64,000 bases of DNA from Bryobacterales bacterium (GCA_963422375.2 OY729427.2:64001-128000), one strand, 5' to 3'; shown: positions 3,563 through 48,480, counted from the stretch's first letter. Notes: generated from the letters alone by a model not told the origin. Numbers and translations: made by a program.

Positions 3563-3951
3563 GGGAATTATATATCTGAGTGCCGACAACGCCATGTTCG
3601 ACGAGAACTGCTGTGATCAGGGAGGTCGGCGTCTGGCTCCGGTCATTCGAATGCGGCCGCGGTAGGCACGGAAAAGTGGGATCGTATCTGAATCGAACCT
3701 GCCAGCGGAATGGACGAGGCACGGATAAGAGAGGCCCCCTCGCATGCCCCGGTGGAATCCGGTTGGCGGTGGAGGGCACCCCTTGCAAGCCGCTTGCGTG
3801 CCCTGCGAGGGCCGAAGACAGCGGCTCCCCGGCGCTCGACGGCCTGCATGGACGGTCCGGGCCGGACTCGGGTCGCGCCGGGGGATTCCGGATCCGGCGC
3901 GCCCCTCGCACCGAGCGTGAAGCGCATCGAGCGTGAAGAGTGCGTCGGCAG

Positions 3952-4778
3952 CCCCCCACTGCCGCGGCTCCAGCGTGCAGTCCGGCACGGCCCACCCTTC
4001 GATGCCGTACCGTTGCCGCGGCTGCGGCAAGCGCTTTTCGGTGCGCACCGGCAGCGTGATGGCCGACACCAAGCTCGGCTACCGCACCTGGGCCGTCGCC
4101 CTGTTCCTGCTAACCACCGGCATAAAGGGCGTCTCCAGCATGAAGCTGCACCGCGACCCGGGCATCAGCCGGAAGTCGGCCTGGCACCTCGCGCACCGCA
4201 TCCGCGCGTGCCGGGAGCGGGATCGGGGCCTGTTCGCCGGCCCGGTGGAGGTGGACGAGACGTACGTCGGCGGCAAGGAGCGCAACCAGCACGAGAGGAA
4301 GAAGGCCCGCGCCGGGCGCGGGCCCGTCGGCAAGACGTCCGTGGCGGGCGCGCGGGACCGCGCCACGAACGCAGCGGCCGCGCAGCCGCTGCCGGGTACG
4401 ACCAAGGGCGACCTGCAGGGCTTCGTGCGCGGCCGGGTCGCGCCGGGCGCGCAGGTCCGCTCCGACGAGGCGGCGGCCTACGCCGGCATAGCGGAGTTCC
4501 CGCACGAGGGTGTCCAGCACTCCGGCGGCGAGTACGTGCGCGGGGCGGCGCATACGAACGGCATCGAGTCGTTTTGGTCCCTGTGCAAGCGCGGCCTGTA
4601 CGGCACCTATCACCGGATGAGCGTCCGTCATCCGGGTCGCTACCTCACGCAGTTCGCGGGACGGTGCAACGACCGCGACTGCGACACGGCGGAACGGATG
4701 CGGCGCATGGCGCGGGGCCTGGTCGGCCGGACGCTGACCTACCGGCAGCTGACCGGCAAGGCCGCGGTCTCGGCCTGA
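3952..4778 (+). pseudogene. IS1595-family DDE transposase lacking N-terminal ~45 aa
   Basis: Zn-ribbon (PHC...YRCRGC), VEVDETYVGG, RSDE, HTNGIESFWS..KRG. Confidence 0.88.
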
Positions 4779-5193
4779 GCGGCGCCCTCCGAGCTGAGCG
4801 CGGCAGCCCGCTGCGGACGCGCTCTTCACGCTCGGTGCGCTTCACGCTCGGTACGAGGGGCGCACCGGATCCGGAATGCCCCGGTGCGACCCCGGTCCGG
4901 CCCGGACCGTCCATGCAGGCCGTCAAGCGCCGGGGATCCGCTGTCTTCGGCCCTCGGAGGGCACGCAAGCGGCCTGCAAGGGGTGCCCTCCACCGCAAAC
5001 CGGATTCCACCGGGGCATGCGAGGGGGCCTCTCTAATCCGTGCCTCGTCAATTCCGCGGGCAGGTTCGATTCAGATACGATCCCGCCTTGCTGTGCCTAC
5101 CGCGGCCGCATTCGAATGACCCGAGCCAGACGCCGACCTCCCTGATCACAGCAGTTTTCGTCGGACATGGCGTTGTCGGCACTCAGATATATA

Positions 5194-5448
5194 GTGCTTG
5201 TGACAAAACCCCTGAATTCTGGCCCGATCAGCATTTCATACTACATCCTGAGTTCGGATAGATCTCCAAACACAACATATAGGGCCCAAGGTCGGAAGTT
5301 GCTCAGACGCCAATCGCGAAGATTTCCGCGCTCTACCCAGAATCGCCAGGATTTCGGATTAGTCGTAGCATTCCAGCGAAATCTTCGCCTTGAGAGATTG
5401 GACCTAACGCCTTTGTTGTCAAGGGGATACGAGTTTTTTCACGGGCAC
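5194..5448. mobile_element. 255-bp MITE with ISDol1-like ends, 6-bp TATATA TSD, inside the IS1595 right TIR
   Basis: Ends GTGCTTGTGACAAAA / TTTTCACGGGCAC; TATATA at 5188-5193 and 5449-5454; second copy at 12576-15414. Confidence 0.85.
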
Positions 5449-5460
5449 TATATAATTCCC

Positions 5461-6226
5461 ATTCGAAACCTAGCACCGGCCGATGCGGATCCGATCCAGC
5501 GGGCCAAGCTCGCGGCGGTCATCGAGCAGGACAGCTTCCTGTCCGAAGCGCAAGGCGGGGACGAAGCCGTCGAATCCGCGATCCGGAACTACGAACTCGC
5601 GTACCGCATGCAGTCCTTGCTGCCGGACGTGCTGGATCTAAGCAGGGAGACAGCCGCCACGAAGCGCGCGTACGGGCTCGAGGCGGAGGAAGAGGAGGCG
5701 CGGCGCTATGCCACGCAGTGCCTCAGGGCGCGCCGTCTGATCGAAGCGGGCGTCCGGTTCGTGGAAATCACCTGCGCGGAGGTCTACGGAGGCAACAACG
5801 GCACCTGGGACCAGCACACCGACCTGAAGAAGGGTCACGAGGGCAACGCGAGGATCACCGACCGGCCCGTGGCGGCGCTGCTTGGCGACCTCAAGGCGCG
5901 CGGAATGCTTGACGAGACGCTGGTGGTGTGGGCCACGGAGTTCGGCCGCACGCCGGACATCGGCAACGGCGACGGGCGGGACCACCACGAGTCGGGATTC
6001 ACGATTTGGATGGCGGGAGGCGGTGTGCGGAGGGGGCTGGTGTACGGCTATACGGACGAACTCGGGGTGCATGCCGTCGACAACGTAGTGTCCATTCACG
6101 ACCTGCACGCAACGATTTTGCATCTCGTCGGGCTGGACCACGAGAGGCTGACCTACTCGCTTCGGCGGACGCGACATTTCACTGACCGACGTACATGGGA
6201 GGGTGGTCCGCGACTTGCTCGCATGA
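5461..6226 (+). pseudogene. DUF1501 protein, 3' fragment (5' part lost at IS end; +1 frameshift near 6157)
   Basis: YELAYRMQ, CLRARRLIEAGVRFVE, WDQH, EFGRTP, GRDHH; ends ..RFGGRDISLTDVHGRVVRDLLA* in the shifted frame. Confidence 0.85.
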
Positions 6227-6251
6227 GGGCCGGGCGGGCTCCTGCGGACCA

Positions 6252-7151
6252 CTATCGCGAGCGCCCGAAGATCTGGACGCGCTCTCCCTGAACCTCCGTT
6301 ACGTACAGGCGGCCGCGCTGGTCGACGTCCATCAGGTGCGGCAGCTTGAGCGTCTCGGGATTCCCCCATTGCGCGGTCATCTCGCCATCTCCCAGCCGCA
6401 AGTGGCTGATCGTGTGGGCGTCACCGTCCGAGACGATCAGCTCGTCGCCGACCACCAGTACGCCGAAGGGATTGCCGAAACCGGTCCACGCCGCGAGGAA
6501 CTCGCCTTCCGGGGAAAACACCTGCACGCGATCGTTGCCGCGATCCGCCACGTAGATGCGGTCTTGCGGGTCGATCGCGATTCCGTGGGCCGCGGCGAAC
6601 TCCCCCGGGCTCTTTCCCTTGCGCCCCCACTGCGAGACGAACCGGCCATCCGGGGAGAGGCGCACGATGCGGCCGTTTCCGGCGTCAGCCACATAGATAT
6701 CCCCGTTCGAGGCGAATACCAGATCGTCTGGCGAACGGAAGTGACTGCGATCGCTGCCGCTAACCGACTTCTCGCCGTACGTCGCAAGGACCTCGCCGTC
6801 AGGCGAGAACTTCCACAGCACGTGCAGCTGGTTGTCCGTCGCCCAAACGTAGCCGTCCGCGTCGACGCGCAGGCCGTGCGCCACGCCGAATTCCCCTCGG
6901 CCCCAGCCGTGGCTGAACCTGCCGTTGGCATCGTAGGCCAGCAGGGGCGGCTCGCCCCTGTGCAGCACGTACGTCCGACCGGCAGGGCCAACCGCCACGG
7001 CGGAGACCGCGCCGACCTGCACGTCGGAAGGAAATTCCAAGAAGCCCTCGGAGCGGTAGGGGCCTTCCGCTTGAAGCGAGACCGCGCCCCACGCAACCGC
7101 CAGGGCGAGCCGCAGCCAGCCGCGCCGCGGCAAGGATACTTTGACCACCAT
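6252..7151 (-). CDS. NHL-repeat beta-propeller (peptidyl-alpha-hydroxyglycine amidating lyase-like), secreted
   Basis: Repeats AHGLRVDADGYVWATD, PDDLVFASNGDIYVADAGNGRI, AHGIAIDPQDRIYVADRGNDRVQVF; signal peptide from ATG 7151. Confidence 0.87.
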   Translation of the reverse strand: MVVKVSLPRRGWLRLALAVAWGAVSLQAEGPYRSEGFLEFPSDVQVGAVSAVAVGPAGRTYVLHRGEPPLLAYDANGRFSHGWGRGEFGVAHGLRVDADGYVWATDNQLHVLWKFSPDGEVLATYGEKSVSGSDRSHFRSPDDLVFASNGDIYVADAGNGRIVRLSPDGRFVSQWGRKGKSPGEFAAAHGIAIDPQDRIYVADRGNDRVQVFSPEGEFLAAWTGFGNPFGVLVVGDELIVSDGDAHTISHLRLGDGEMTAQWGNPETLKLPHLMDVDQRGRLYVTEVQGERVQIFGRSR

Positions 7152-8361
7152 TGCCGAGACTCTAGCAGAGAGTCCGAGGCTCGCTGGTACGGTCCCCGAG
7201 GGACGCGGGACATCAGGCGAGCGCCTCCCGGAGAACTGGGGCGTCCGTGGCGGTCGGCCGGCGGCGGCCCTGGCACCGGCAGAGCAGCTTTCGGTGGTGG
7301 ATTCCCACATGGTGCACAATCTTCGCCGACGCTGCATGGGGGGCCGCCGCTGCGTCCGCGACATTGCCGCTGAACCCGTCCGCCGTCCCGCGGCGTTGCG
7401 GTCACTGGCAGGGTGGTCGCGACGGTAGGTGTCGGGCTCGGGGGGCTTTGCGCGTGGGGCCTGCACCCGAACTCCCTGCCCCAGACAACCGGCACGGCGT
7501 CGAGAGGGTCGCGCACCAGCGCCGCGGAGTGCTTGTCGGTGTCGCAAGCCGACACCCGCAGGCGCTTGGGCGCCTTGCCGTGGTGGCAGCACCGGAGGAC
7601 TCGCATGTCGCGCTCTACGAGTCCGCGACGCGCCGGCATTGCATCTCGTTGATCCCGGCACCCGATTTATCGTCAAGTGGGGACGGTGGCGGGTGATGCC
7701 GGGCCGATCGCACAGGTAGGACACTGGATCCCCCTTTCGGACCCGAACTCTCAGCCCTGACGGCGGCTCGGCAGGAATCAGGTGGTGCCCCACGGCCGGG
7801 CCAACGGCCCAGCCCGCGAAGCCCCTCGCTGGCGGCAGAATCCGGCGCAACGAAGGCCGGGAGCTTATCATTGGCGCTACCCGGGCGTAGTCGATTCAAG
7901 CGCCATGCGCCTTGGGCATGGCGGATGGCCTCCGGTCCGGAAGGACGTGATGGCGGAGGCATGGCTAGTCGCTTCTGCACGCACCGACTGGATCGGGCAG
8001 ATCCGGCCCGCGATACCCGCGGCGCGGGACAGGATCTCGCCGAGCTCGGTTCCGCTCTGGCGGACCTTCTGGAAGCAATGCGCTGTCGGCATGACTTGGA
8101 ATCGCACCCACCGCGCAACGATGCCGGCCGCGCGGTGGCCGCCGAACGCCGGCACCGAAGTATCGCCGGCGAACCGCTCCCTCGGGAGCTGGTTCGAAGC
8201 GAACGGATCCCCGCGCGAGGGGCTACCCCGCTACCGCTAGCCCGGGGGCAAGTCCACTAGCAGCAAGGGCGGAAGCTGTCAGGCAAGGCTAGATCGATCA
8301 TCGGCTAGGAGCAGGCGCAGCGGCCGGCTGGAGTGTTATGCTGGCCTAGGACGCAATTACC

Positions 8362-9186
8362 ATGGCTCGAGGCACTCTGATTCTCCTTGCGGGCGTACTG
8401 CTGCTTGCGCCGGGCAGCCTTCGAGCCGCAGAGGAACTGCATACGAAGACCGGCTTTCTGAACTTCCCGTTCGAGGTAGGCGGCACAGAGCGTACCGCCG
8501 CGCTCTACGTCCCTCCGCAATACGACAGATCAATGGAATGGCCGCTGATCGTGTTCCTGCATGGAGGCGGCGGGAAGGGCGACAACAACGGCAACGCTTT
8601 AACCGAGCGATTCATGAGGCAGGGCCTCGTCAGTACGATCCAGAGCTACCCGGAGGGTTTTCCTACCTTGGTAGTGTTTCCTCGTTGTCCTGAAGACAAG
8701 ATCTGGACACCCATTCCCCCCGAACCAATACAATCACCTTGGCGTTTGCGACGGCACGGGACCGATCCTATCCCAGACGCCGAGGAGCACATCACCGCAG
8801 TGATCAACGCAGTCATTGCGGATTTTTCCGTAGCAGAAGACAGGATTATCCTCACCGGGCACTCGATGGGCGGGGAGGGATCTACACGATACGCGGCACT
8901 TCACGCGGATCGAGTCGCCGCTGTCGCGCCGTCAGCCGGTTCTGCGGTGGTGGTGCTCGAAGACGCCCCTGCTCTCGCGAAAATCGGCGTCTGGCTCTTT
9001 CAAGGGGAGACGGACAACATCAGTACAGTGACGCTTGCCAGGCGCATGATCGCCGCAATCCGCTCCGCAGGTGGAAACCCGAGGTACACCGAATACGAGG
9101 GAGTGGGTCACGCTACGGCCGGTCTCGCGTATCGAGATCGCGAGGTCATTGCTTGGATGCTTGAACAAAGGCGTCGAAAGAAATAG
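8362..9186 (+). CDS. Secreted alpha/beta hydrolase (esterase/peptidase-like)
   Basis: PLIVFLHGGG, GHSMGG nucleophile elbow, QGETD, YEGVGH; signal peptide. Confidence 0.87.
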   Translation: MARGTLILLAGVLLLAPGSLRAAEELHTKTGFLNFPFEVGGTERTAALYVPPQYDRSMEWPLIVFLHGGGGKGDNNGNALTERFMRQGLVSTIQSYPEGFPTLVVFPRCPEDKIWTPIPPEPIQSPWRLRRHGTDPIPDAEEHITAVINAVIADFSVAEDRIILTGHSMGGEGSTRYAALHADRVAAVAPSAGSAVVVLEDAPALAKIGVWLFQGETDNISTVTLARRMIAAIRSAGGNPRYTEYEGVGHATAGLAYRDREVIAWMLEQRRRKK

Positions 9187-9201
9187 TTAGGGAATTATAT
9201 A

Positions 9202-11059
9202 GTGCTTGTGACAAAACCCTGATATTTTGGGTATTCTAGCTGATAGATCCCCACCAAATGATAGCTATGGAAGAAACAGTCTGCGCCAATTAACCGAACT
9301 CATTGCCTCATATTCCATTTTCATTGTGAGGATACAGTTAGTTCTGTTCTAGTTGTACACTTTTCCTGAACCTTGTCTCTTCAAGGTTTCAATTCAGGGC
9401 AATTCAGATCGCTGCCGACTGCCTATGCAGCCAGCGGCAAGGGTCCCGTCTTGAGACGCTCCCTCTCTCTGTCGCGCACGATCCGGCCCGCTCGATGCAC
9501 GTTCGCCGCCAGGACCGCTAGCCCGATCATCCGCTCGAATCCCTCCGCTCCCCGGTCCATCACCCTGTCCGGACCGCGGCACTCGAGATTGTTGATCGCG
9601 GACTCCACGGCCGGGTGCGCCTGCCTCGCTGCCACGAATTCGGGCGCGCATTCCGTCGCCTTCGCCGCCTTCGACAGCCTCCCCTTCCGCGGCATCGCGT
9701 GGCACGACAGCAGTTCCGCCAAGCGCGTCCGGTTCGCCGGGCTGCGAAAGCCCTTGTCGAAGCTGCAGCTCGACAACCCCGCGTACAGCCCCTGCGCGCC
9801 CTCGACGATTCCCACCGCTACGTCCGCGTCGCTCCCCTTGCACATCACTTCGTGATTCATCACGAATCGGTGCTCGCTTTCCACGATGCATACCGGAACG
9901 CCCGGCTCCACCGGCACCCCCGCTTTTCCTTTCACGCACCAGCGCGTGTGTTCCTCGAAGATCGAGAACACTTGCTCCTCGTGCGGGATCTTCTCCCCCC
10001 GCAGCACGCGCCGCTCCACCGGGTCCGCCAGGAGCTGCACGCACCCGAGGTAACTCCTTGCCGCTCGCAAGGTTCCCTCGTCTTCCCCGGCCTGCGCCAG
10101 GGCCGCCAGCGCACCCTCCGCCCGCCGCGCTATCTCCAGGGCCGCCTCCAGGTACGACCGCACCCTCTCCGGGTTGCCTTGCCTCCTCTTCGCCTGCCGC
10201 ACCCGGTTGAATTCCTGCTTCAGCGTCTTCGGCAGCCGCGCGCTCTGCCGCCAGCCCGCGATACCGCGCCCCTTGCACAGCGGCGCAATAGAGCGAATCA
10301 GGCAGCGCAACGCGTCCCGCAGCAGACTCACCTCCGTCGGGTAATGCACGTTCGTTTCCACCGCGAAAGAGTCGCACCGCGCCTTCAGCGGATCGCCTTC
10401 CTCGCGCCCCGCCAGCGCGTGCCCTTCCTGCACCACCAGCTGATTGATTTCCGCGAGGAGGTCGGGCGTGAGAAGCTTCGGATTCCGGTTGACTGTCCGG
10501 TAGCTGAAGACCTGCTCGTCGAGCGTCGCGTTCAGACCGAGGAAGCGCCGGACGTCCGCGTGCTTGTTCGCCAGCTCCGTCACGCGGCCGTAGTCGCAAT
10601 TCAATCCCTGCTTGAGCAGGCCCGGGACGAGAATATTCCACAGCTGCATGCCGGGACGACCGACAGCAGGGTTGATCCTGCCGGACTCGCCTGCGGAAGG
10701 ATCGCTTCCGTTCTCGCCGTTCCCGCCGTTCCCGCTACTCTCACCGAGGCCGAGGATACGGCTCTCGAGCAGTCCGAAAACCCTGTCCCGCAACTCCTCG
10801 GTGGGATAGATGAATTGTATTCCTAGCAAGATGGCCGGGATATCTTCGCGGGAACGGACGTCGAGATCGATATCCTCGATTGCAGTCCGGCCAAGGGTGA
10901 GCTGGCTCTCCTGAACGGTCCTCACGGGCGGTTCCTCAACGAAGATTGTCGCACAACCCCCGGAAACGCGCAAGCCGGCCCGGATCGCCCCGATCTTCGT
11001 CCCACGGACCTGCTGCAACCTCCCGGAAACTAAGAGCTTGCGCGTTCTGTCACAAGCAC
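9202..11059 (-). mobile_element. ISNCY element, ISDol1-like, 1858 bp, TATATA TSD
   Basis: TIRs GTGCTTGTGACA / TGTCACAAGCAC; TATATA at 9196-9201 and 11060-11065; size and 6-bp DR fit the ISDol1 group as I recall it. Confidence 0.82.
9423..10925 (-). CDS. ISNCY-family transposase
   Basis: GTG start with GAGGA RBS; GRPGMQLWNIL, RCDSFAVETNVHYPT, SFDKGF, HPAVESAINNLE; open frame with suspicious Pro substitutions. Confidence 0.82.
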   Translation of the reverse strand: MRTVQESQLTLGRTAIEDIDLDVRSREDIPAILLGIQFIYPTEELRDRVFGLLESRILGLGESSGNGGNGENGSDPSAGESGRINPAVGRPGMQLWNILVPGLLKQGLNCDYGRVTELANKHADVRRFLGLNATLDEQVFSYRTVNRNPKLLTPDLLAEINQLVVQEGHALAGREEGDPLKARCDSFAVETNVHYPTEVSLLRDALRCLIRSIAPLCKGRGIAGWRQSARLPKTLKQEFNRVRQAKRRQGNPERVRSYLEAALEIARRAEGALAALAQAGEDEGTLRAARSYLGCVQLLADPVERRVLRGEKIPHEEQVFSIFEEHTRWCVKGKAGVPVEPGVPVCIVESEHRFVMNHEVMCKGSDADVAVGIVEGAQGLYAGLSSCSFDKGFRSPANRTRLAELLSCHAMPRKGRLSKAAKATECAPEFVAARQAHPAVESAINNLECRGPDRVMDRGAEGFERMIGLAVLAANVHRAGRIVRDRERERLKTGPLPLAA

Positions 11060-11138
11060 TATATATCTGAGTGCCGAGGGAATCAAGTCGGCAAATTATC
11101 AAGCCATAATAAGATTTCATATTTCTTCCGACTTTCCG

Positions 11139-11168
11139 TTGACATTCTGTAGTGTTTCTTGGTAGAAT
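11139..11168 (+). promoter_or_regulatory. sigma70-like promoter of the IS1595 transposase
   Basis: TTGACA-N18-TAGAAT; both hexamers conserved at 23341-23370 (+) and 54099-54128 (-) while the spacer differs. Confidence 0.65.
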
Positions 11169-11191
11169 AGTTCCAGTATGGGATACCGTAA

Positions 11192-12160
11192 ATGAAGAAA
11201 CAAGATCCCGGAAAGTGGTTCCGTAAAGGCATCACATTGATCGAAGTGATCGCCATGTTCCCCGATGACGAATCCACGGAAAGATGGTTCGCTGCCATGC
11301 GCTGGCCAGGACGGCCCCGCGTGCCCCCACTGCCGCGGCTCCAGCGTGCAGTCCGGCACGGCCCACCCTTCGATGCCGTACCGTTGCCGCGGCTGCGGCA
11401 AGCGCTTTTCCGTGCGCACCGGCAGCGTGATGGCCGACACCAAGCTCGGCTACCGCACCCGGGCCGTCGCCCTGTTCCTGCTGACCACCGGCATCAAGGG
11501 CGTCTCGAGCATGCAGCTGCACCGCGACCCGGGCATCAGCCGGAAGTCGGCCTGGCACCTGGCTCACCGCATCCGTGCGTGCCGGGAGCGGGATCAGGGC
11601 CTGTTCGCCGGCCCGGTGGAGGTCGACGAGACCTACGTCGGCGGCAAGGAACGCAACCAGCACGAGAGCAAGAAGGCCCGCGCCGGGCGCGGGCCCGTCG
11701 GCAAGACCCCGGTGGCGGGCGCGCGGGACCGCGCCACGAACGCAGCGGCCGCGCGGCCGCTGCCGGGCACCGCCAAGGCCGACCTGCAGGGCTTCGTGCG
11801 CGGCCGGGTCGCGCCGGGCGCGCAGGTCCGCTCCGACGAGGCGGCGGCCTGCGCCGGCATGGCGGAGTTCCCGCACGAAGCCGTCAAGCACTCCGGCGGC
11901 GAGTACGTGCGCGGGGCGGCGCATACGAACGGCATCGAGTCGTTTTGGCCCCTGTTCAAGCGCGGCCTCTACGGAACCTATCACCGGATGAGCGTCCGTC
12001 ATCCGGGTCGCTACCTCACGCAGTTCGCGGGACGGTGCAACGACCGCGACTGCGACACGGCGGAACAACGGCGGAACAGATGCGGCGCATGGCGCCGGGC
12101 CTGGTCGGCCGGACGTTGACCTACCGGCAGCTGACCGGCAAGGCCGCGGTCGCGGCCTGA
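11192..12160 (+). pseudogene. IS1595-family transposase, frameshifted (~11308; 11-bp duplication 12057-12078)
   Basis: MKKQDPGKWFRKGITLIEVIAMFPDDE in one frame, catalytic core in another. Confidence 0.88.
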
Positions 12161-12754
12161 GGCGGCGCCCTCCGCGCCGAGCGCCGCAGCCCGCTGCCGA
12201 CGCACTCTTCACGCTCGGTGCGCTTCACGCTCGGTGCGAGGGGCGCGCCGGATCTGGAATCCCCCGGCGCGACCCGCGTCCGGCCCGGACCGTCCGTGCA
12301 GGCCGTCGAGCGCCGGGGATCCGCTGTCTTCGGCCCTCGCAGGGCACGCAATCGGCTTGCAAGGGGTGCTCTCCACCGCCAACCGGATTCCACCGGGCAT
12401 GCGAGGGGGCCTCTCTTATCCGTGCCTCGTCCATTCCGCTGGCAGCTTCGATTCAGCTACGATCCCACCTTGCTGTGCCTACCGCGGCCGCATTCGAATG
12501 ACCCGAGCCAGACGCCGACCTCCCTGCTCAGAGCAGTTCTCGTCGGACATGGCGTTGTCGGCACTCAGATATATAGTGCCCGTGACAAAACTCGTATCCC
12601 TTTGACAAAAAAGGCGTTAGGTCCAATCTCCCAAAGCGAATATTTCGCTGGAACGCTACGACTAGTCCGAAATCCTGGCGATTCTGGGTAGAGGTCGGAA
12701 ATCTTCGCGATTGGCGGCTGAGCAACTTCCGACCTTGGGCATTATATATCCTGA

Positions 12755-13702
12755 TTACCCACAAGACTCAGCCAAGGTTAGGAGGCGGTAAGGCATGGGC
12801 GGGGTGCGCACGGAGGCGTGGAGCAGGCGGGGGACCAGCGCCTCCAGGTCGTAGCGGCGGTTGAAGCGGTAGCGGAACTCGGCGAGGTACCGCGGCAGGT
12901 GCTTGCCGTCGAGCGCATGGCAGGTTCCCGCCGGGGACTGCTTGACGTTCGCCAGCATCGTGTTGACCCGGACGAAGCGCGAATCCGCGCAGCTCCGCTT
13001 CCCGCCTCCGGTGACGGTCGGCACGTGCTCGCAGCCGGCGCCGGCCACGCCCCGGAAGCAGGCCGGGCCGTCGGAACGCACCTCCGTGCCGGGCTGCAAG
13101 TGCCGCCCGGCCCATGCTGCCAGCGTCTTCTTGCGGCAGCCCGCCACGCCGCTCATGCGCATCCTTGCCGGCTTGCCGGCGGCGGTGACCTGCACGGCGG
13201 CGACGAACGGCGTCTTGCCTGCCGCGCCGCGCCCGCGCTTGCCGCCGGTCCGCTCCCCGCCCCGGCAGGCGTCGTCCACCTGCACGATGCCGCCCAGCGG
13301 CACGCGCTCGTCGCGCTCCTTCATCACTTGCAGGAGCTTGTGCTTCATCTTCCAGGCCGTGTTCCGGCTCACGCCCGGCTGCCGCGCCAGTTCCAGCGAC
13401 GAAACGCCGTGCTGGCCCTGCGTCAGCAGGTGCAGCGCCAGGAACCAGACGGTCAGCGGCAGCTTGGTGGCGGCGAAGATCGTGCCGGCGACGAGGGAGG
13501 TCCGGCGGTGGCAGGCGTGGCACTGCCGGAGCTTGCGGGAGCGGATGCGGCAGTGCCGGCGGGAGCCGCACTCCGGGCAGCGGAAGTCGTCCGGCCAGCG
13601 GGCGTTGAAGACGGCCTGCTCGCATGGCCCCTCGCTGCCGTAGCGCTGCAGGAACTTGCCCAGGCTGAGTCCCTTCTGGAATTGCACGCGATTGCGTTTC
13701 AT
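12755..13702 (-). CDS. IS1595-group transposase (probably inactive)
   Basis: MKRNRVQFQKGLSL, CPEC..CHAC, VQVDDA, RSDG, VNTMLANVK, YLAEFRYRFNRR. Confidence 0.85.
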   Translation of the reverse strand: MKRNRVQFQKGLSLGKFLQRYGSEGPCEQAVFNARWPDDFRCPECGSRRHCRIRSRKLRQCHACHRRTSLVAGTIFAATKLPLTVWFLALHLLTQGQHGVSSLELARQPGVSRNTAWKMKHKLLQVMKERDERVPLGGIVQVDDACRGGERTGGKRGRGAAGKTPFVAAVQVTAAGKPARMRMSGVAGCRKKTLAAWAGRHLQPGTEVRSDGPACFRGVAGAGCEHVPTVTGGGKRSCADSRFVRVNTMLANVKQSPAGTCHALDGKHLPRYLAEFRYRFNRRYDLEALVPRLLHASVRTPPMPYRLLTLAESCG

Positions 13703-13704
13703 CT

Positions 13705-15243
13705 GAGCCTTTTGCAAAAATCCCGAGCTCATAGCATTATCATTTAGTTAGTCTATTAAGTATTCGATATAATCAATGGAATAGAACTGTAGTAAATGTA
13801 GTTTTAATGGCTTATCATGCGTTTTGAGTTTCCTGGAAATCCCTTGCCATCCGTGCTATTATTGTAATGCAAGCCTAGTAAGCAGCTGGCAGGATTCAAC
13901 GAATATGTCCTTGATAGAAACCGTATCCGCGTACTGGTTCACGTTCCAGCAGGGGCTGTTCCCCTGGCTCGAGCAGGAACTCGGCCCCCTCGGCGAGCGC
14001 TACCGCAGCTTCGTCCAAGCGGTGGAACGGGCGCAGGTCGAGGACTGCCTGCCCGTCGGGCAGGGCGGCCGCGGCCGCCCCCTCGAAAGCCGCGCCGCCA
14101 TGGCGCGCGCCTTCATCGCCAAGGCCGTCTTCGACCAGCCCGCTACGCGCTCGCTGGTCGAGCGCCTGCAGACCGATCGCACCCTGCGCCGACTGTGCGG
14201 CTGGGACCTGGCCGGGGCCGTGCCCGGCGAGGCAACCTTCTCGCGCGCCTGCGCCGAGTTCGCCGCCGGCGAACTGCCCGGACGCTTGCACCAGGCGCTG
14301 CTCGCGCGGACGCTCGACGGCCGCTTGGCAGGGCACGTCTCCCGCGACTCGACCGCCATCGAGGGCCGCGAGCGGCCCGCCGGGAAGCCCGCGCCGGAAC
14401 CGGAGCCGAAACGCAAGCGCGGGCGCCCTCGCAAGGGCGAGCAGCGGCCGCCCGCTCCGCGCCGACTGGCGCGGCAGCCCGACATGAATCTCGAAGCAAT
14501 GCTGCACGACCTGCCGCAGGACTGCGATACCGGCACCAAGCGCAACGCCAAGGGCCGTACCGTCAGCTGGCGCGGCTACAAGCTGCATATCGACGCGATC
14601 GACGGCGGGATCCCGGTCAGCTGCCTGCTCACCTCGGCTTCGCTGCACGACAGCCAGGCCGCGATCCCGCTGGCGACACGGACCGCGGGCCGCGTCGACA
14701 ATCTGTACGACCTGATGGACAGCGCGTACGACGCGGCCGGGATCCGGGCCTTCAGCAAGCGGCTCGGGCACGTGCCGCTCATCGCTGTCAACCCGCGCGG
14801 CCGGACGGAGCTGCAGGCGGATCTGGCACGGGAGGCCAAGGCGCTGCGCAGCGCCGGGCGGGCGGAGCCCGCGCAGCTGCGCTACCGGGAGCGCTCGACG
14901 GTGGAGCGTGTCAACGGCCGCCTGAAGGACGATTGCGGCGGGCGCCGCGTGCGCGTCCGCGGCAAGGTGCTGTGCCACCTCCTGTTCGGCGTGCTCGCGC
15001 TGACGGTCGCGCAGCTCCTGCGCCTGGCGCTCCGAGAGCCCGGGCCGCCGGGACAGCCGCGAAGAGCGCCCGCCCGCAGGGCCGGGCCGGGAGAGCTGCG
15101 CCTGCACGCGGCCGCTCCCCGCAGGAGCGCCCCGCAGCCGAGCAAGCCCAGCTGAAGGGAGTCTTTTTCGGCGAGAATAACAGCCCGGAAACTAGTCGTT
15201 CATGGGGCGGTCAGCCCTCTTTTCTGAATTTTGCAAAAGGCTT
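13705..15243 (+). mobile_element. IS5/IS1182-like element, 15-bp TIRs, 4-bp TSD ATCT
   Basis: GAGCCTTTTGCAAAA / TTTTGCAAAAGGCTT; ATCT at 13701-13704 and 15244-15247; the uninterrupted site is visible in the sister copy near 46200-46215. Confidence 0.83.
13905..15155 (+). CDS. DDE transposase (IS5/IS1182-like)
   Basis: SRDSTAIE, GYKLHID, SLHDSQAAIPL, LMDSAYDA, YRERSTVERVNGRLK; the tail after CGA 15033-15035 looks like stop-codon readthrough. Confidence 0.82.
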   Translation: MSLIETVSAYWFTFQQGLFPWLEQELGPLGERYRSFVQAVERAQVEDCLPVGQGGRGRPLESRAAMARAFIAKAVFDQPATRSLVERLQTDRTLRRLCGWDLAGAVPGEATFSRACAEFAAGELPGRLHQALLARTLDGRLAGHVSRDSTAIEGRERPAGKPAPEPEPKRKRGRPRKGEQRPPAPRRLARQPDMNLEAMLHDLPQDCDTGTKRNAKGRTVSWRGYKLHIDAIDGGIPVSCLLTSASLHDSQAAIPLATRTAGRVDNLYDLMDSAYDAAGIRAFSKRLGHVPLIAVNPRGRTELQADLAREAKALRSAGRAEPAQLRYRERSTVERVNGRLKDDCGGRRVRVRGKVLCHLLFGVLALTVAQLLRLALREPGPPGQPRRAPARRAGPGELRLHAAAPRRSAPQPSKPS

Positions 15244-15426
15244 ATCTGCTAGCCCCTTTCCTAGCAGAGATTTCCGACCTCCTTCAGTATAGCATATCCT
15301 CGGCTGACGTTCGTTGGTAATCAGGTTATATATTGTGCTTGGAGCTTCAACTGACCTCAGGATGTAGTATGAAATGCTGATCGGGCCAGAATTCAGGGGT
15401 CTTGTCACAAGCACTATATAATTCCC

Positions 15427-23255: not shown

Positions 23256-24650
23256 AGGAATTATATATCTGAGTGCCGGGGCAGCCGATTTGGAAAATTA
23301 TCAATCCATAAAGGAATTTGATATGTCTTCCGTATATCTGTTGACAGTCTGTGGAGTTTCTTGATAGAATAGTTGCAATATAGGAGGTCGTCATTGAAGA
23401 AGTCGAAGCAGAAAGGTCCCGGGAAGTGGTTTCGTAAAGGCATCACCTTGATCGAAGTGATTGCCATGTTCCCCGATGACGAATCCGCGGAAAAGTGGTT
23501 CGCCTCCGTGCGCTGGCCGGACGGTCCGGCATGCCCCCGCTGCCGCGGTTGCGGCAAGCGCTTTTCCGTGCGCGCCGGCAGCGTGATGGCCGACACCAAG
23601 CTCGGCTACCGCGTCCGGGCCATGGCCCTGTTCCTGCTGACCACCGGCCTCAAGGGCGTCTCCGGCATGAAGCTGCACCGCGACCCGGGCATCAGCCGGA
23701 AGTCAGCCCGGCACCTGGCGCACCGCATCCGCGCGTGCCGGGAGCGGGACCGGGACCTGCTCGTCGGCCCGGTGGAAGTGGACGAGACGTACGTCGGCGG
23801 CAAGGAGCGCAACAAGCACGAGAGCAAGAAGGCCCGCGCCGGGCGCGGGCCGGTCGGCAAGACCCCCGTGGCGGGCGCGCGGGACCGCGCCACGAACGCA
23901 GTGGCCGCCCGGCCGCTGCCGGGCACGACCGAGGGCGACCTGCAGGGCTTCGCGCGCGGCCGGGTCGCGCCGGGCGCGCAGGTCCGCTCCGACGAGGCGG
24001 CGGCCTGCGCCGGCATGGCGGAGTTCGCGCACGAGGGCGTCAAGCACTCCGGCGGCGAGTACGTGCGCGGGACAGCGCATGCGAACGGCATCGAGTCGTT
24101 CCGGTCCCTGTTCAAGCGCGGCTTCTACGGAACCTATCACCGGATGAGCGTCCGTCACTTGGGCCGCTACCTCACGGAGTTCGCGGGACGGTGCAACGCC
24201 CGCAACTGCGACACGGCGGAACGGATGCGGCGCATGGCGCGGGGCCCGGTCGGCCGGACGCTGACCTACCGGCAGCTGGTCGGCAAGGCCGCGGTCGCGG
24301 CCCGAGCACGGCCTGGCCGGTCCGCTGCGGCCTCTCTTCACGCTCAGTGCGAAGGGCGCTCCGGATCCGGAATCCCGCGCCGCGACCGGTGTCCAGCCCG
24401 GACGATTCATAGATGCAGCCGCCCTGGAAGGGGAGCCTCTCCACGGCAATCCGGGTTCCACCGGGGCGCCCGAGGCGGCCTCTCCGGTCCGTGCGTCGCG
24501 AGATCCGCTTGCAGGCGCAATTCAGATACGAACCGACCTTTCGGCGCCCACCTCGGCCGCACACGAAAGATCCGAGCTAGACGCCGACGTCCCCAAGCAG
24601 AGCAGTTCTAGCCGGATATGGCGTCGTCGGCACTCAGATATGTAATTCCC
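23256..24650 (+). mobile_element. IS1595-family element (ISNwi1-like ends); transposase 23394-24611 with in-frame Zn-ribbon deletion and lost stop
   Basis: AGGAATTATATATCTGAGTGCCG ... CACTCAGATATGTAATTCCC; CPRCRG|CGKRF (18 aa lost between TGCCGCGG repeats); GCC-TGA to GCC-CGA near 24303; no TSD. Confidence 0.9.
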
Positions 24651-45342: not shown

Positions 45343-47938
45343 CAGCAGTTCTAGATTTGGCCATAAAGGTGGTGGATGAACGTTGTTTCGGAGGATGAGG
45401 TGAACAAGTTGACCGAGAGGTCGCGCTTCGAAGGCCGCCCCGCGGGAGTGTCGGACGGCTGGCAGGGCTGTGTCGCGATCCCGCGACGGGTCCGCCTGGT
45501 GCCAGGCCCGCGGGCGGACGCACTCCGGCGGTAGCCTGCTGCCGCAGCCGGCCGCTCGCCGGACGCTGCCGAGGCGAAGCTGCGCGGAGGCTAGGCCCCG
45601 GCCGACTGGCAGCGCGGCGGCGCGCGTCCGTCGCGCACCGCCGCCAGCAGAGCCCGCCAGTCCGGGAAGCGGTATCAGCGCAGCGCGACCCTCAGCTCCT
45701 TGAACAAGTCGCGGCGCGTGACCCGCTTGCACCGGCACTGCCGCCACAGCGCGCAGACGCACTGCAGCACCGCATGGAGCACGAAGGCGAACAGGCTCAG
45801 CACAACCGTCACGTTGGCCGGCGCGGCCTTGCCGTGCCCGAAGTTGCAGCCGTGCCGCGCCAAGCAGTTGAAGCCCTCGTTCTCGATCTTCCAGCGCGCC
45901 CAGCCGACCCGCGCGATCCGCTCCGCGTTGTCCGTGGTGACCGCGAGACTGGTGAAGAACCAGTTGGCGTAGGTACGCTTGCCGCCGCGCTCCGCGGCGT
46001 ACTCGATCCAAGTGCTCGGCCGGGTCCGGGCCGCGGCAGCCAGCCGGTCGATTGCACTGCGCCGCGCGCCTGCCGATTCTCTGGCACCTCGTACGAGTCC
46101 TTGTGGGATCCGGGCTTGCATACCCGGACCTGATTACCAACGAACGTCAGCCGAGGATATGCTATACTGAAGGAGGTCGGAAATCTCTGACAGGAAAGGG
46201 GCTAGCAGCTGAAACGCAATCGCGTGCAATGCCAGAAGGGACTCAGCCCGGGCAAGTTCCTGCAGCGCTACGGCAGCGAGGGGCAATGCGAGCAGGCCGT
46301 TTTCAACGCCCGCCGGCCGGACGGCTTCCGCTGCCCGGAGTGCGGCTCCCGGCGGCACTGCCGCATCCGCTCCCGCAAGCTCCGGCAGTGCCATGCCTGC
46401 CACCGCCGGACCTCCCTCGTCGCCGGCACGATCTTCGCCGCCAGCAAGCTGCCGCTGACCGTCCGGTTCCTGGCGCTCCACCTGCTGACGCAGGGCAAGC
46501 ACGGCGTTTCGTCGCTGGAACTGGCGCGTCAGCCGGGCGTCAGCCGGAATACCGCCTGGAAGGTGAAGCACAAGCTCCTGCCAGTGCTGAAGGAGCGCGA
46601 CGAGCGCGTGCCGCCGGGCGGCATCGTGCAGGTGGACGATGCCTACTGGGGCCTGCTGGGGCGGGGAGCGGAGCGGCGGCAAGAGCGCGGTCGCGGCGCG
46701 GCGGGCAAGACGCCGTTCGTGGCCGCCGTGCAGGTCACCGCCGCCGGCCAGCCGGCAAGGATGCGCATGAGCAGCGTGGCCAGCGTGGCGGGCTTCCGCA
46801 AGAAGACGCTGGCAGCGTGGGCCGGGCGGCACTTGCAGCCCGGCACGAAGGTGCATTCCGACGGCCCGGCCTGCTTCCGGGGCGTCGCCGACGCCGGCTG
46901 CGAGCACGTGCCGACCGTCACCGGAGGCGGGCAGCGGAGCTGCGGGGATTCCCGCTTCGTCCGGGTCAACACGATGCCGGGGAACGTCAAGCAGTCCCTG
47001 GCGGGAACCTGCCATGCGCTCGACGGCAAGCACCTGCCGCGGTACCTCGCCGAGTTCCGCTACCGCTTCAACCGCCGCTACGATCTGGAGGTGCTGGTCC
47101 CCCGCCTGCTCCACGCCTCCGTGCGCACCCCGCCCATGCCTTACCGCCTCCTAACCTTGGCTGAGTCTTGTGGGTAATCAGGTACCCGGATGTAGTCCAC
47201 ATGCCAGCGGCCTCGCAGACCGGCTGGCAACAGTACAGGTCGTCGCCCGGCAGGACGGGGCGGTAGGCCTGCAGCCAGGCGCCGTGAGCGGCGATCCAGC
47301 GCTTGGCGGCGTTGCGCTCGCAGTCCTGCTTGCGCTCGTCCTCGCTCATGTCGGCGCGGGTCGCGGCCGCGTCCTGCTGCGGGCGCACGAACTCGGGCAT
47401 CAGCGGCAGGACGGTGGCGTGGCCGTCGGCCACCGCGGTGGCCGCGACCATGGTGTGGAAGTGATGCGGCCGGCGCTCGTCGAGGCGCTGGAAGGGCTCG
47501 AGCGCGCCCTGCGCGGCCACGGTTTCGAGGCACAGCCGGAACGGCGGGTCGAACGCGGCCGGGTCGAGGCCGTCGAGCAAGTTGCGGATCCGGTGGGCGC
47601 AGGGGATGCGGCCCACGCCGAACAGGGTCCGGCAGTTGGAGCGGGAGCCGTCCCGCTCCATGCTCCGCTGGAATTCGAGGAACGACTCGCACTGGGTGAA
47701 GAAGCAGGCCAGGGCGCAACCGGCGGCGTCGCTGACCAAGTAGCGCGTGTTGCGACCCGTGCGCCGGTCGGGCAGGCCGGCGGCCGTCTCGCGGATGGCG
47801 CTCGGCAGCGCGTCCAAGACATGCGACATACATCCCAACTCGCAGATTGCGCGTCAAGCACCTGCCTGCGCCAGCCTGCCTTCGACACCCTTCTGAGACT
47901 CTCTGGAAATCCCAGAATGCCCAAATTGAGAATCGCTG
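45343..47938 (-). mobile_element. ISNCY element (ISMae2-like, CAG ends), internally deleted and interrupted by an IS1595-group copy
   Basis: IRs CAGCAGTTCTAGATTTGG / CCAAATTGAGAATCGCTG; LPDRRTGRNTRY..FFTQCESFL, KQDCERNAAKRW, GDDLYC, ARWKIENEGFN. Confidence 0.8.
46129..47182 (+). mobile_element. IS1595-group element, 1054 bp, 8-bp TSD TACCCGGA; transposase start ATG changed to CTG
   Basis: CCTGATTACC..GGTAATCAGG; TACCCGGA at 46121-46128 and 47183-47190; ORF 46224-47177. Confidence 0.92.
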
Positions 47939-48480
47939 AGTTTCGACAAGGGCGTTCACAGACCGGCGAACCTGACGCGCTTGGAAGAGCTGCTCGCGTG
48001 CAACGCGATGCCGCGGAAGGGTCGTCTGTCGAAGGCAGCGAATGAGACTGAGGGTGCGCCGGAATTCGTGGCTGCGAGGCAGGCGCACACGGCCGTGGAG
48101 TCCGCGATCAACAATTTGGAGTGTCGCGGTCCGGACCGGGGAACGGAGGGATTCGAGCGGATGATCGGACTGGCCGCGAATGTTCATCGAGTGGGCCGGA
48201 TCCTGCGCCACAGAGAGCGGGAGGGTCTCAAGGCAAGGCGCTTGCTGCTGGCTGCATAGGCAGCCGGAAGCGATCTGGATTGCCTAAACTGGAACCTTGA
48301 AGAGACCAAGTTCACGAAACGTGTTCAACCAAAAGACAACTGACTGTATCCTCATATTGGCAGTGGAATACGAGGCGATGATTTCGAGTAATTGGTCGTA
48401 GTCTGTTCCTTCTGTAGAAATCATCTAGCCGCGTTCTATCGGCTAGAATCCACGAAAACTCAGGGTTTTGTCGAAAGCAC
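47939..48480 (+). mobile_element. 3' remnant of an ISDol1-like element
   Basis: SFDKG..AMPRKGRLSK..VESAINNLECRG; end CAGGGTTTTGTCGAAAGCAC at 48480. Confidence 0.82.

Follow-up and report, generated by a model that had tools for sequence, protein, structure and literature searches.

Insertions of an ISNCY-family insertion sequence (IS) and of its MITE (miniature inverted-repeat transposable element) into the ends of IS1595-family elements of a Bryobacterales bacterium are best explained by the supply of TA-NN-TA hexamers and by their context, and not by recognition of the IS1595 end, a reading to which we give a probability of about 0.8. The stretch analyzed, hereafter the window, comprises 64,000 nt (C1:64001-128000) of a genome of 5,995,950 bp in 3 contigs with 67% GC. 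We refer to the IS1595-family host as IS-A, to the ISNCY-family IS as IS-B, to a second IS1595-family kind as IS-C and to an IS630-type MITE as MITE-D. The evidence consists of the target consensus, a census of sites, their occupancy, the independence of the events and the presence of the same target in relatives, all observed directly. In the mechanism we propose, IS-B (1,858 bp), a putative DDE transposon, and a 255-bp MITE with the same termini insert at palindromic TA-NN-TA, less often at TA-NNN-TA, duplicating the target, in either orientation and preferably in surroundings that are not AT-rich. With 67% GC, such targets are scarce, and about 120 IS1595 copies supply TATATA in both of their inverted repeats. 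Insertions in another IS would carry no cost to the host, which would help those at IS1595 ends persist.

The 22-nt terminal inverted repeat (TIR) of IS-A, GGGAATTATATATCTGAGTGCC, is intact in the window at 3563 (+), 52808 (+) and 54213 (-), and the copies at 23256 and 24650 have one mismatch each; at up to 3 mismatches there are 6 matches versus 0 expected (100 shuffles). Three TIRs are split within a duplicated TATATA. The right TIR of IS-A copy 1 reads GGCACTCAGA-TATATA(5188-5193)-MITE-TATATA(5449-5454)-ATTCCC. The left TIR of copy 2 reads GGGAAT-TATATA(9196-9201)-IS-B-TATATA(11060-11065)-TCTGAGTGCC, and its right TIR GGCACTCAGA-TATATA(12570-12575)-MITE, in the other orientation-TATATA(15415-15420)-ATTCCC. 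The inserted elements have the ends GTGCYYGTGACA, located at 5194/5448, 9202/11059 and 12576/15414, and this sequence gives 7 matches in the window at up to 1 mismatch versus 0.84 expected. All coordinates and all three TATATA duplications of the initial annotation hold when read from the sequence, and its view of three separate events is borne out by the different inserts and opposite orientations in the window.

Ends of IS-B and of the MITE were collected genome-wide with a 16-mer at up to 2 mismatches, a threshold at which more degenerate ends are missed. The 176 ends fall into 75 pairs and 26 unpaired ends, that is, 101 events, since each unpaired end was counted as one event; a pair with ends more than 8 kb apart would thus be counted twice. 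By length, 10 pairs are full-length elements (1,800-1,900 bp) and 58 are MITEs (240-270 bp). The target rule is apparent from the 122 flanks of the 61 pairs located outside IS1595 TIRs: 100 of the flanks have T at position -6 and 107 have A at -5, 119 have T at -2 and 113 have A at -1, and C is weakly favored at -7 (54/122). Exact TA-NN-TA adjoins 76 of the 101 events. The remaining 25, which were excluded from the per-site rates given below, have a 7-bp TA-NNN-TA duplication (e.g. TAGTCTA) or a one-mismatch version. The remnant at 48480 in the window, which the initial annotation had taken as a sign that specificity for TATATA is not absolute, has the flank TAGACTA and is of the 7-bp type.

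The same rule is followed by relatives of IS-B in two other genomes, in which the transposase is 57% and 50% identical and the TIRs are GTGCCCGTGACAAAA and GTGTCCGCCAGAAAA. All 14 distinct ends of these relatives adjoin TANNTA, the hexamer being TAGTTA, TAGCTA, TAACTA or TATATA, and no IS1595-like TIR was found around any of the 14. Since the relatives keep TA-NN-TA away from IS1595 TIRs, the target rule is a trait of the transposase lineage, independent of IS-A. The element family is present in five of the 301 genomes of the phylum sample, this genome included. No published description of the target rule of this lineage or of an ISNCY/IS1595 pairing was found in the literature searched; the part of PMC8147514 available to us mentions ISDol1 and contains no description of targets.

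TA-NN-TA hexamers number 1,638 in the 6.0 Mb, including 319 TATATA. In the census of sites, every insertion was taken as one pre-insertion site, and IS-A TIRs were called genome-wide at up to 3 mismatches. By this count, 225 of 305 TATATA sites (74%) lie in IS1595 TIRs, and the TIRs hold ~14% of all TA-NN-TA targets; insertions at IS1595 ends are therefore an expected by-product of supply. This is what the initial annotation had offered as a fallback, namely, that TATATA is rare and that IS ends are its main source. IS1595 TIRs received 18 of the 101 events, at 18 different loci, versus 83 elsewhere, and 18 of the 76 TANNTA events (24%). Occupancy of TATATA is 8.0% within TIRs (18/225) and 5.0% outside of them (4/80; odds ratio (OR) for the TIR 1.65, p=0.46), and that of all non-TIR TA-NN-TA sites is 4.3% (58/1,352; OR 1.94, p=0.027). 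Two hexamers are occupied above the TIR rate: TAACTA at 11.4% (13/114) and TAATTA at 12.5% (3/24). Sites that appear to lie in gene interiors, according to a crude GC-phase proxy (both flanks coding-like) with no annotation behind it, are occupied in only 7 of 461 cases, as expected from purifying selection. Once these are removed, and with paired events only, the excess of TIRs over other TANNTA vanishes (14/230 versus 38/878, OR 1.43, p=0.29). The genome-wide flank comparison which the initial annotation had called for thus gives insertion nearly proportional to TA-NN-TA supply (8.0%, 5.0% and 4.3%), and the claim that the element targets the ends of another transposon is not supported.

Unequal use of the two IS-A ends points in the same direction. 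The terminal 24 bp are identical in both ends, and the sequences diverge further in. Right arms hold 13 of the 18 TIR events and left arms two, and the other three are unassignable. With 100 free right ends and ~105 free left ends (96 classified plus 9 left-like variants assigned by eye), occupancy is 13/113 (11.5%) for the right arm versus 2/107 for the left, a ~6-fold difference (OR 6.8, p=0.006). Recognition of the repeat predicts like use of both ends, so the unequal use of one and the same TIR sequence argues that the repeat is not itself recognized. The arm difference is in line with the way the element avoids AT-rich surroundings in general. GC content of the inner 100 nt is 39% in the left arm and 64% in the right one, and non-TIR sites with GC below 0.5 over +-100 nt are occupied in 2 of 298 cases versus 43 of 1,041 elsewhere (p=0.0016). 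When non-TIR sites are sorted by the GC content of their poorer side, 1 of 125 is occupied below 40% and 19 of 251 at 50-60%. Context-matched in this way, right TIRs (pairs, 11/111) do not differ significantly from non-TIR sites (19/251, p=0.54), nor do left TIRs (2/107 versus 1/125, p=0.60).

Several points weigh against an explanation by supply and context. In the raw counts, TIRs are occupied about twice as often as all other TANNTA sites (p=0.027) and right-arm TIRs, at 11.5%, are among the most-used classes of sites, so that a modest true preference may exist. The samples are small, and a preference of less than ~2-fold could go undetected. The ages of sites and elements are not part of the rates, and if many IS1595 copies postdate the MITE bursts, equal occupancy would mask a higher rate per unit of time. 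The two occupancy figures would favor a real but modest preference of the ISNCY element and MITE for the ends of IS1595, above all the right one, in addition to TA-NN-TA and context, with DNA bending or proteins bound at the right end as possible causes. TIR-embedded MITEs are also slightly more alike (mean identity 0.954 versus 0.932), as if they had used recently available sites. Nevertheless, we regard such a preference as unlikely: the comparisons with other TATATA, with sites outside gene interiors and with context-matched sites all lack significance, left TIRs hold only two insertions although their terminal 24 bp are the same, and two hexamer classes exceed the TIR rate. Equally doubtful is a picture of a network of mobile elements in this genome, some landing in each other's ends, with IS-C and MITE-D (see below) as the clear case and the ISNCY element and MITE showing a modest right-end preference for IS1595 (11.5%). 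If it were true, the ISNCY element and MITE would be a measurable check on the spread of IS1595 and not purely passive occupants.

The events at IS1595 ends are independent of each other. Outer flanks of the TIR-embedded inserts are different in 13 of 13 cases, the ten MITE-type inserts in TIRs are oriented 5:5 relative to the TIR, and for six of the eight uninterrupted TIR-embedded MITEs the nearest relative among the 58 MITEs is a non-TIR copy; one full-length IS-B embedded in a TIR, at C2 254896, matches a non-TIR copy with 100% identity. These results bear on hitch-hiking, also raised in the initial annotation, in which composites of IS1595 and MITE would still move via the outer 12 bp and some TIR insertions would be copies of one composite. 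The outer GGGAATTATATA is indeed kept in every case, and two MITEs of the same class, at C1 69194 and C3 408674, are 98.8% identical; however, the latter is closer to a non-TIR copy (99.6%) than to the former. Composites with a fresh 8-bp target site duplication (TSD) were looked for and none was found, a matching TSD being present in only one of the ten insert-bearing hosts with both ends found, versus 48 of 93 uninterrupted copies. Nor did we find any two loci that agree in side and orientation, share private substitutions in the MITE as well as in the host, and each have an 8-bp TSD of their own. Flanks, orientations and nearest relatives thus provide no evidence for hitch-hiking, which we consider very improbable. 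The hosts poor in TSDs may lie in rearrangement-tolerant, IS-dense stretches. We also considered an exposure-time account, in which the host IS1595 copies would be older; it gains no support from right-arm divergence (median 9.6% in insert-bearing versus 7.4% in free copies, p=0.33).

An adaptive hyperparasite, selected to disable IS1595 ends, is still less probable. About 8% of IS1595 TIRs are interrupted, which probably inactivates the end concerned and is plausible as a by-product of insertion, but most of the events (83/101) are elsewhere, no specificity past the hexamer was detected, and other genomes show use of the same target with flanks other than IS1595 TIRs. An assembly artefact at repeat junctions has nothing positive in its favor beyond the fact that public short-read (Logan) contigs break at repeat borders, and it is rendered very unlikely, to the point of being negligible, by precise junctions (pairs or ends) at 18 different loci, where the 6-bp duplications are exact, in a genome of three contigs. 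Three of the Logan contigs match 5432-6100 without differences, covering 17 nt of the MITE, TATATAATTCCC and unique flank, the MITE side being shorter than the 31-nt bridging criterion.

Judged by its transposase model, IS-B is an ordinary member of the ISNCY family. The transposase is encoded on the minus strand by an open reading frame (ORF) at 10925-9423, 500 aa long with a GTG start at 10925; a mechanically called ORF of 565 aa was set aside, as it overruns the end of the element by 61 nt. Most homologs of 470-510 aa cover 95-100% of the 500-aa form. The transposase matches NCBIfam NF033593 (transpos_ISNCY_1) with 378.6 bits at a cutoff of 325, residues 87-546 aligning with positions 2-444 of the 444 in the profile, and more distantly an IS5 model (NF033578), with 62 bits and below the cutoff. 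Of 7,999 candidates that were scored, 1,097 are homologs; several of these bear the name ISNCY family transposase and some carry PF01609. A Pfam search of the window IS-B protein (565-aa ORF) matched no family. IS-B agrees with the ISNCY family in transposase score, size, TIRs and 6-7 bp duplications, and differs in nothing defining. Its length of 1,858 bp and the 6-bp TANNTA and 7-bp TANNNTA duplications of IS-B and the MITE also fit the ISDol1 group of ISfinder, which comprises elements of 1.6-1.9 kb with 6-7 bp direct repeats, and make IS-B a candidate member of that subgroup, in keeping with the label ISDol1-like of the initial annotation.

The MITE is short (255 bp) and non-coding, and has termini and a TANNTA duplication as in IS-B. 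The two are alike only over 29 nt (90%) at one terminus and over 16 nt at the opposite one; the MITE uses the same ends as IS-B and is not a simple internal deletion of it. Such termini would allow the ISNCY transposase to mobilize the MITE in trans. The view of the initial annotation that the insert is an autonomous IS of the ISNCY type, accompanied by a MITE, is supported. ISNCY-type elements or MITEs also occur head to tail with one TANNTA between them, at C2:2584926/2584952, C3:82027/82049 and C3:432862/432884 and at L009/L012 in genome G236; they look as if a newer copy had inserted in the duplicated target next to an older one.

The host is an IS1595-family element, as initially annotated, with a DDE_Tnp_IS1595 transposase and an 8-bp target duplication. 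IS-A has 237 TIR matches genome-wide, and among 93 simple pairs 48 have a perfect 8-bp duplication of an AT-rich target. The ORF of copy 1 (3933-4778) matches Pfam DDE_Tnp_IS1595 with 121.6 bits and NCBIfam IS1595 with 161 bits. Copy 1 is a foldback variant: its arms, 3569-3952 and 4810-5193, form a 384-nt inverted duplicate of 93.75% identity, which stands in place of the AT-rich left arm usual elsewhere (as in copy 2). A comparison of its flanks found no matching 8-bp TSD. In copy 2, the ORF at 11265-12119 matches DDE_Tnp_IS1595 with 116.8 bits; the reading frame 11192-12160 has no Pfam match and was rejected. The flanks of copy 2, AATAGTTA and AAAAAGAT, differ and hence contain no TSD. An ORF for 274 aa at 8362-9186, with Pfam matches to alpha/beta-hydrolase, dienelactone-hydrolase and esterase families, stops 3 nt short of where copy 2 begins on its left side. 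The overall IS load is very heavy for 6 Mb, with ~120 IS1595 copies (237 TIRs), ~100 IS-C copies and ~100 ISNCY/MITE events, plus IS630-type and IS5/IS1182-like elements.

The locus of IS-A copy 2 is a nest four elements deep (Table 1). The IS-C in MITE copy 2 forms a 2,576-bp block with the 8-bp TSD TTATATAT at 12742-12749 and 15326-15333, and its ORF on the minus strand (12755-13732) matches Pfam DDE_Tnp_IS1595 and Zn_ribbon_IS1595. The IS5/IS1182-like IS appears as a gap when this IS-C is aligned to the intact copy at 46129-47182 of the window; its ORF matches Pfam DDE_Tnp_1 and DUF772, and NCBIfam IS1182 and IS5 below their cutoffs. The MITE-internal TTATATAT has been used twice by IS-C, in opposite orientations, at 12742-15333 of the window and at C2:324033-324928, and both MITEs split in this manner themselves lie in IS1595 TIRs.

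Table 1. Mobile elements and element ends discussed for the window (positions counted from its first nucleotide).
Feature	Position	Strand	Description
IS-A copy 1	3563..5460	+	MITE in right TIR; left arm an inverted duplicate of right arm
MITE copy 1	5194..5448	+	255 bp; TATATA duplication 5188-5193 / 5449-5454
IS-A copy 2	9190..15426	+	~1,528 bp minus inserts; both TIRs interrupted
IS-B	9202..11059	-	1,858 bp autonomous ISNCY-family IS; TIR GTGCTTGTGACA(A/G)AAC; in left TIR of IS-A copy 2
MITE copy 2	12576..15414	-	opposite orientation, in right TIR of IS-A copy 2; split at internal TTATATAT
IS-C	12750..15325	-	second-kind IS1595-family IS inside MITE copy 2; ends CCTGATTACC; normally ~1,030 bp
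IS5/IS1182-like IS	about 13706..15245	+	nested in IS-C; TIR AGCCTTTTGCAAAA; ORF 13824-15155; approximate boundaries
Lone ISNCY-type end	48465..48480	-	flanked by TAGACTA, 7-bp type target

A contrasting case is found in the same genome. IS-C (~1,030 bp) has 202 ends and 91 pairs, 52 of them with perfect 8-bp duplications, and a loose target consensus, WW-NNNN-WW, of which the genome contains 95,519 sites. MITE-D is 257 bp long and TA-flanked, with the TIR CTGAGRGGCGCAAAAGTCTT, and has 1,153-bp relatives which code for an IS630-type DDE_3/HTH protein. IS-C occupies 15 of 29 MITE-D TIRs at AAAGTCTT or one base shifted, in orientations of 9:6, versus none of 23 occurrences of AAAGTCTT outside MITE-D TIRs. 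The places are C2:3555395-3556711 (locus L031, 96-1394) and 14 more, none in the window. Among 12 embedded IS-C copies examined, the nearest relatives were all classed as lying elsewhere, by a classifier that missed at least one MITE-D-embedded neighbor; composite amplification as the source of IS-C in MITE-D was rejected by this nearest-relative test. The insertions of IS-C in MITE-D TIRs are a genuine hot spot in the end of another transposon, where what IS-C recognizes may be the 11-nt near-palindrome AAAAGTCTTTT or else the transposon end itself. Counted alike, the ISNCY/IS1595 pair shows no end preference of this type.

IS-C has a second hot spot, TACCCGGA, in a GC-rich repeat with ~46 copies and the palindrome TCCGGG...CCCGGA, for which 36 sites are empty and nine left and six right junctions are occupied. 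The intact IS-C at 46129-47182 in the window lies in this repeat; orientations there are ~5:4 genome-wide. IS-C also adjoins the extreme tip of IS1595 TIRs, at C2:1915766-1916798, C2:122424-123450, C2:374677, C2:3601926 and C3:250366. Where both flanks are readable, the 8-bp duplication at these tips is TAGGGAAT, so that the IS-C target takes in the first 6 nt of the IS1595 end.

Known systems resemble the ISNCY/IS1595 case to different degrees. IS4321 and IS5075 have a DEDD transposase with an RNA guide and insert at one position and in one orientation, almost exclusively in their target. They are IS1111-family elements that insert specifically in Tn21-family repeats, according to the part of PMC11187229 that deals with them. 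Like them, IS-B and the MITE are found in the inverted repeat of another transposon. Unlike them, IS-B and the MITE have only 18 of 101 events in a TIR, the MITE lies there in both orientations equally, and occupancy shows no enrichment over the bare motif (p=0.46). IS-B also departs from the IS110/IS1111 DEDD type in its ISNCY transposase, assigned by model, in a generic 6-bp target that is duplicated, and in the unequal use of identical TIRs. IS5-family and PIF/Harbinger-type elements use short TA-containing palindromic targets, which they duplicate. IS-B shares a short TA-rich palindromic target with these and differs in its pattern, 6-7 bp of TA-N2-3-TA.

Closer in logic are plant MITEs nested in MITEs, which Jiang and Wessler are said to have described in 2001 and to have put down to the supply of AT-rich targets. 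The supply logic is the same, but the case described here is bacterial, has a functional TIR as its host site and owes the scarcity of targets to 67% GC. IS of the IS1202 group, formerly under ISNCY, adjoin XerCD recombination sites, as stated in the portion of bioRxiv 10.1101/2022.12.17.520857 available to us. As far as that portion goes, the group is likewise ISNCY-tagged with non-random targets, and its target is long and specific, whereas that of IS-B is a generic hexamer. The present analysis documents, for this ISNCY lineage, both a MITE partner and the TA-NN-TA rule.

The finding is a worked example of how nesting of the "transposon hunts transposon" kind can arise from target supply alone, with IS-C and MITE-D as an internal positive control for genuine end-targeting. 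Where a genome is GC-rich, most of the TA-type targets on offer come to lie in the AT-rich ends of its resident IS. For annotation, this accounts for the four-deep nest of elements at 9190-15426. For IS1595 in this bacterium, interruption of ~8% of the ends probably retires the copies concerned.

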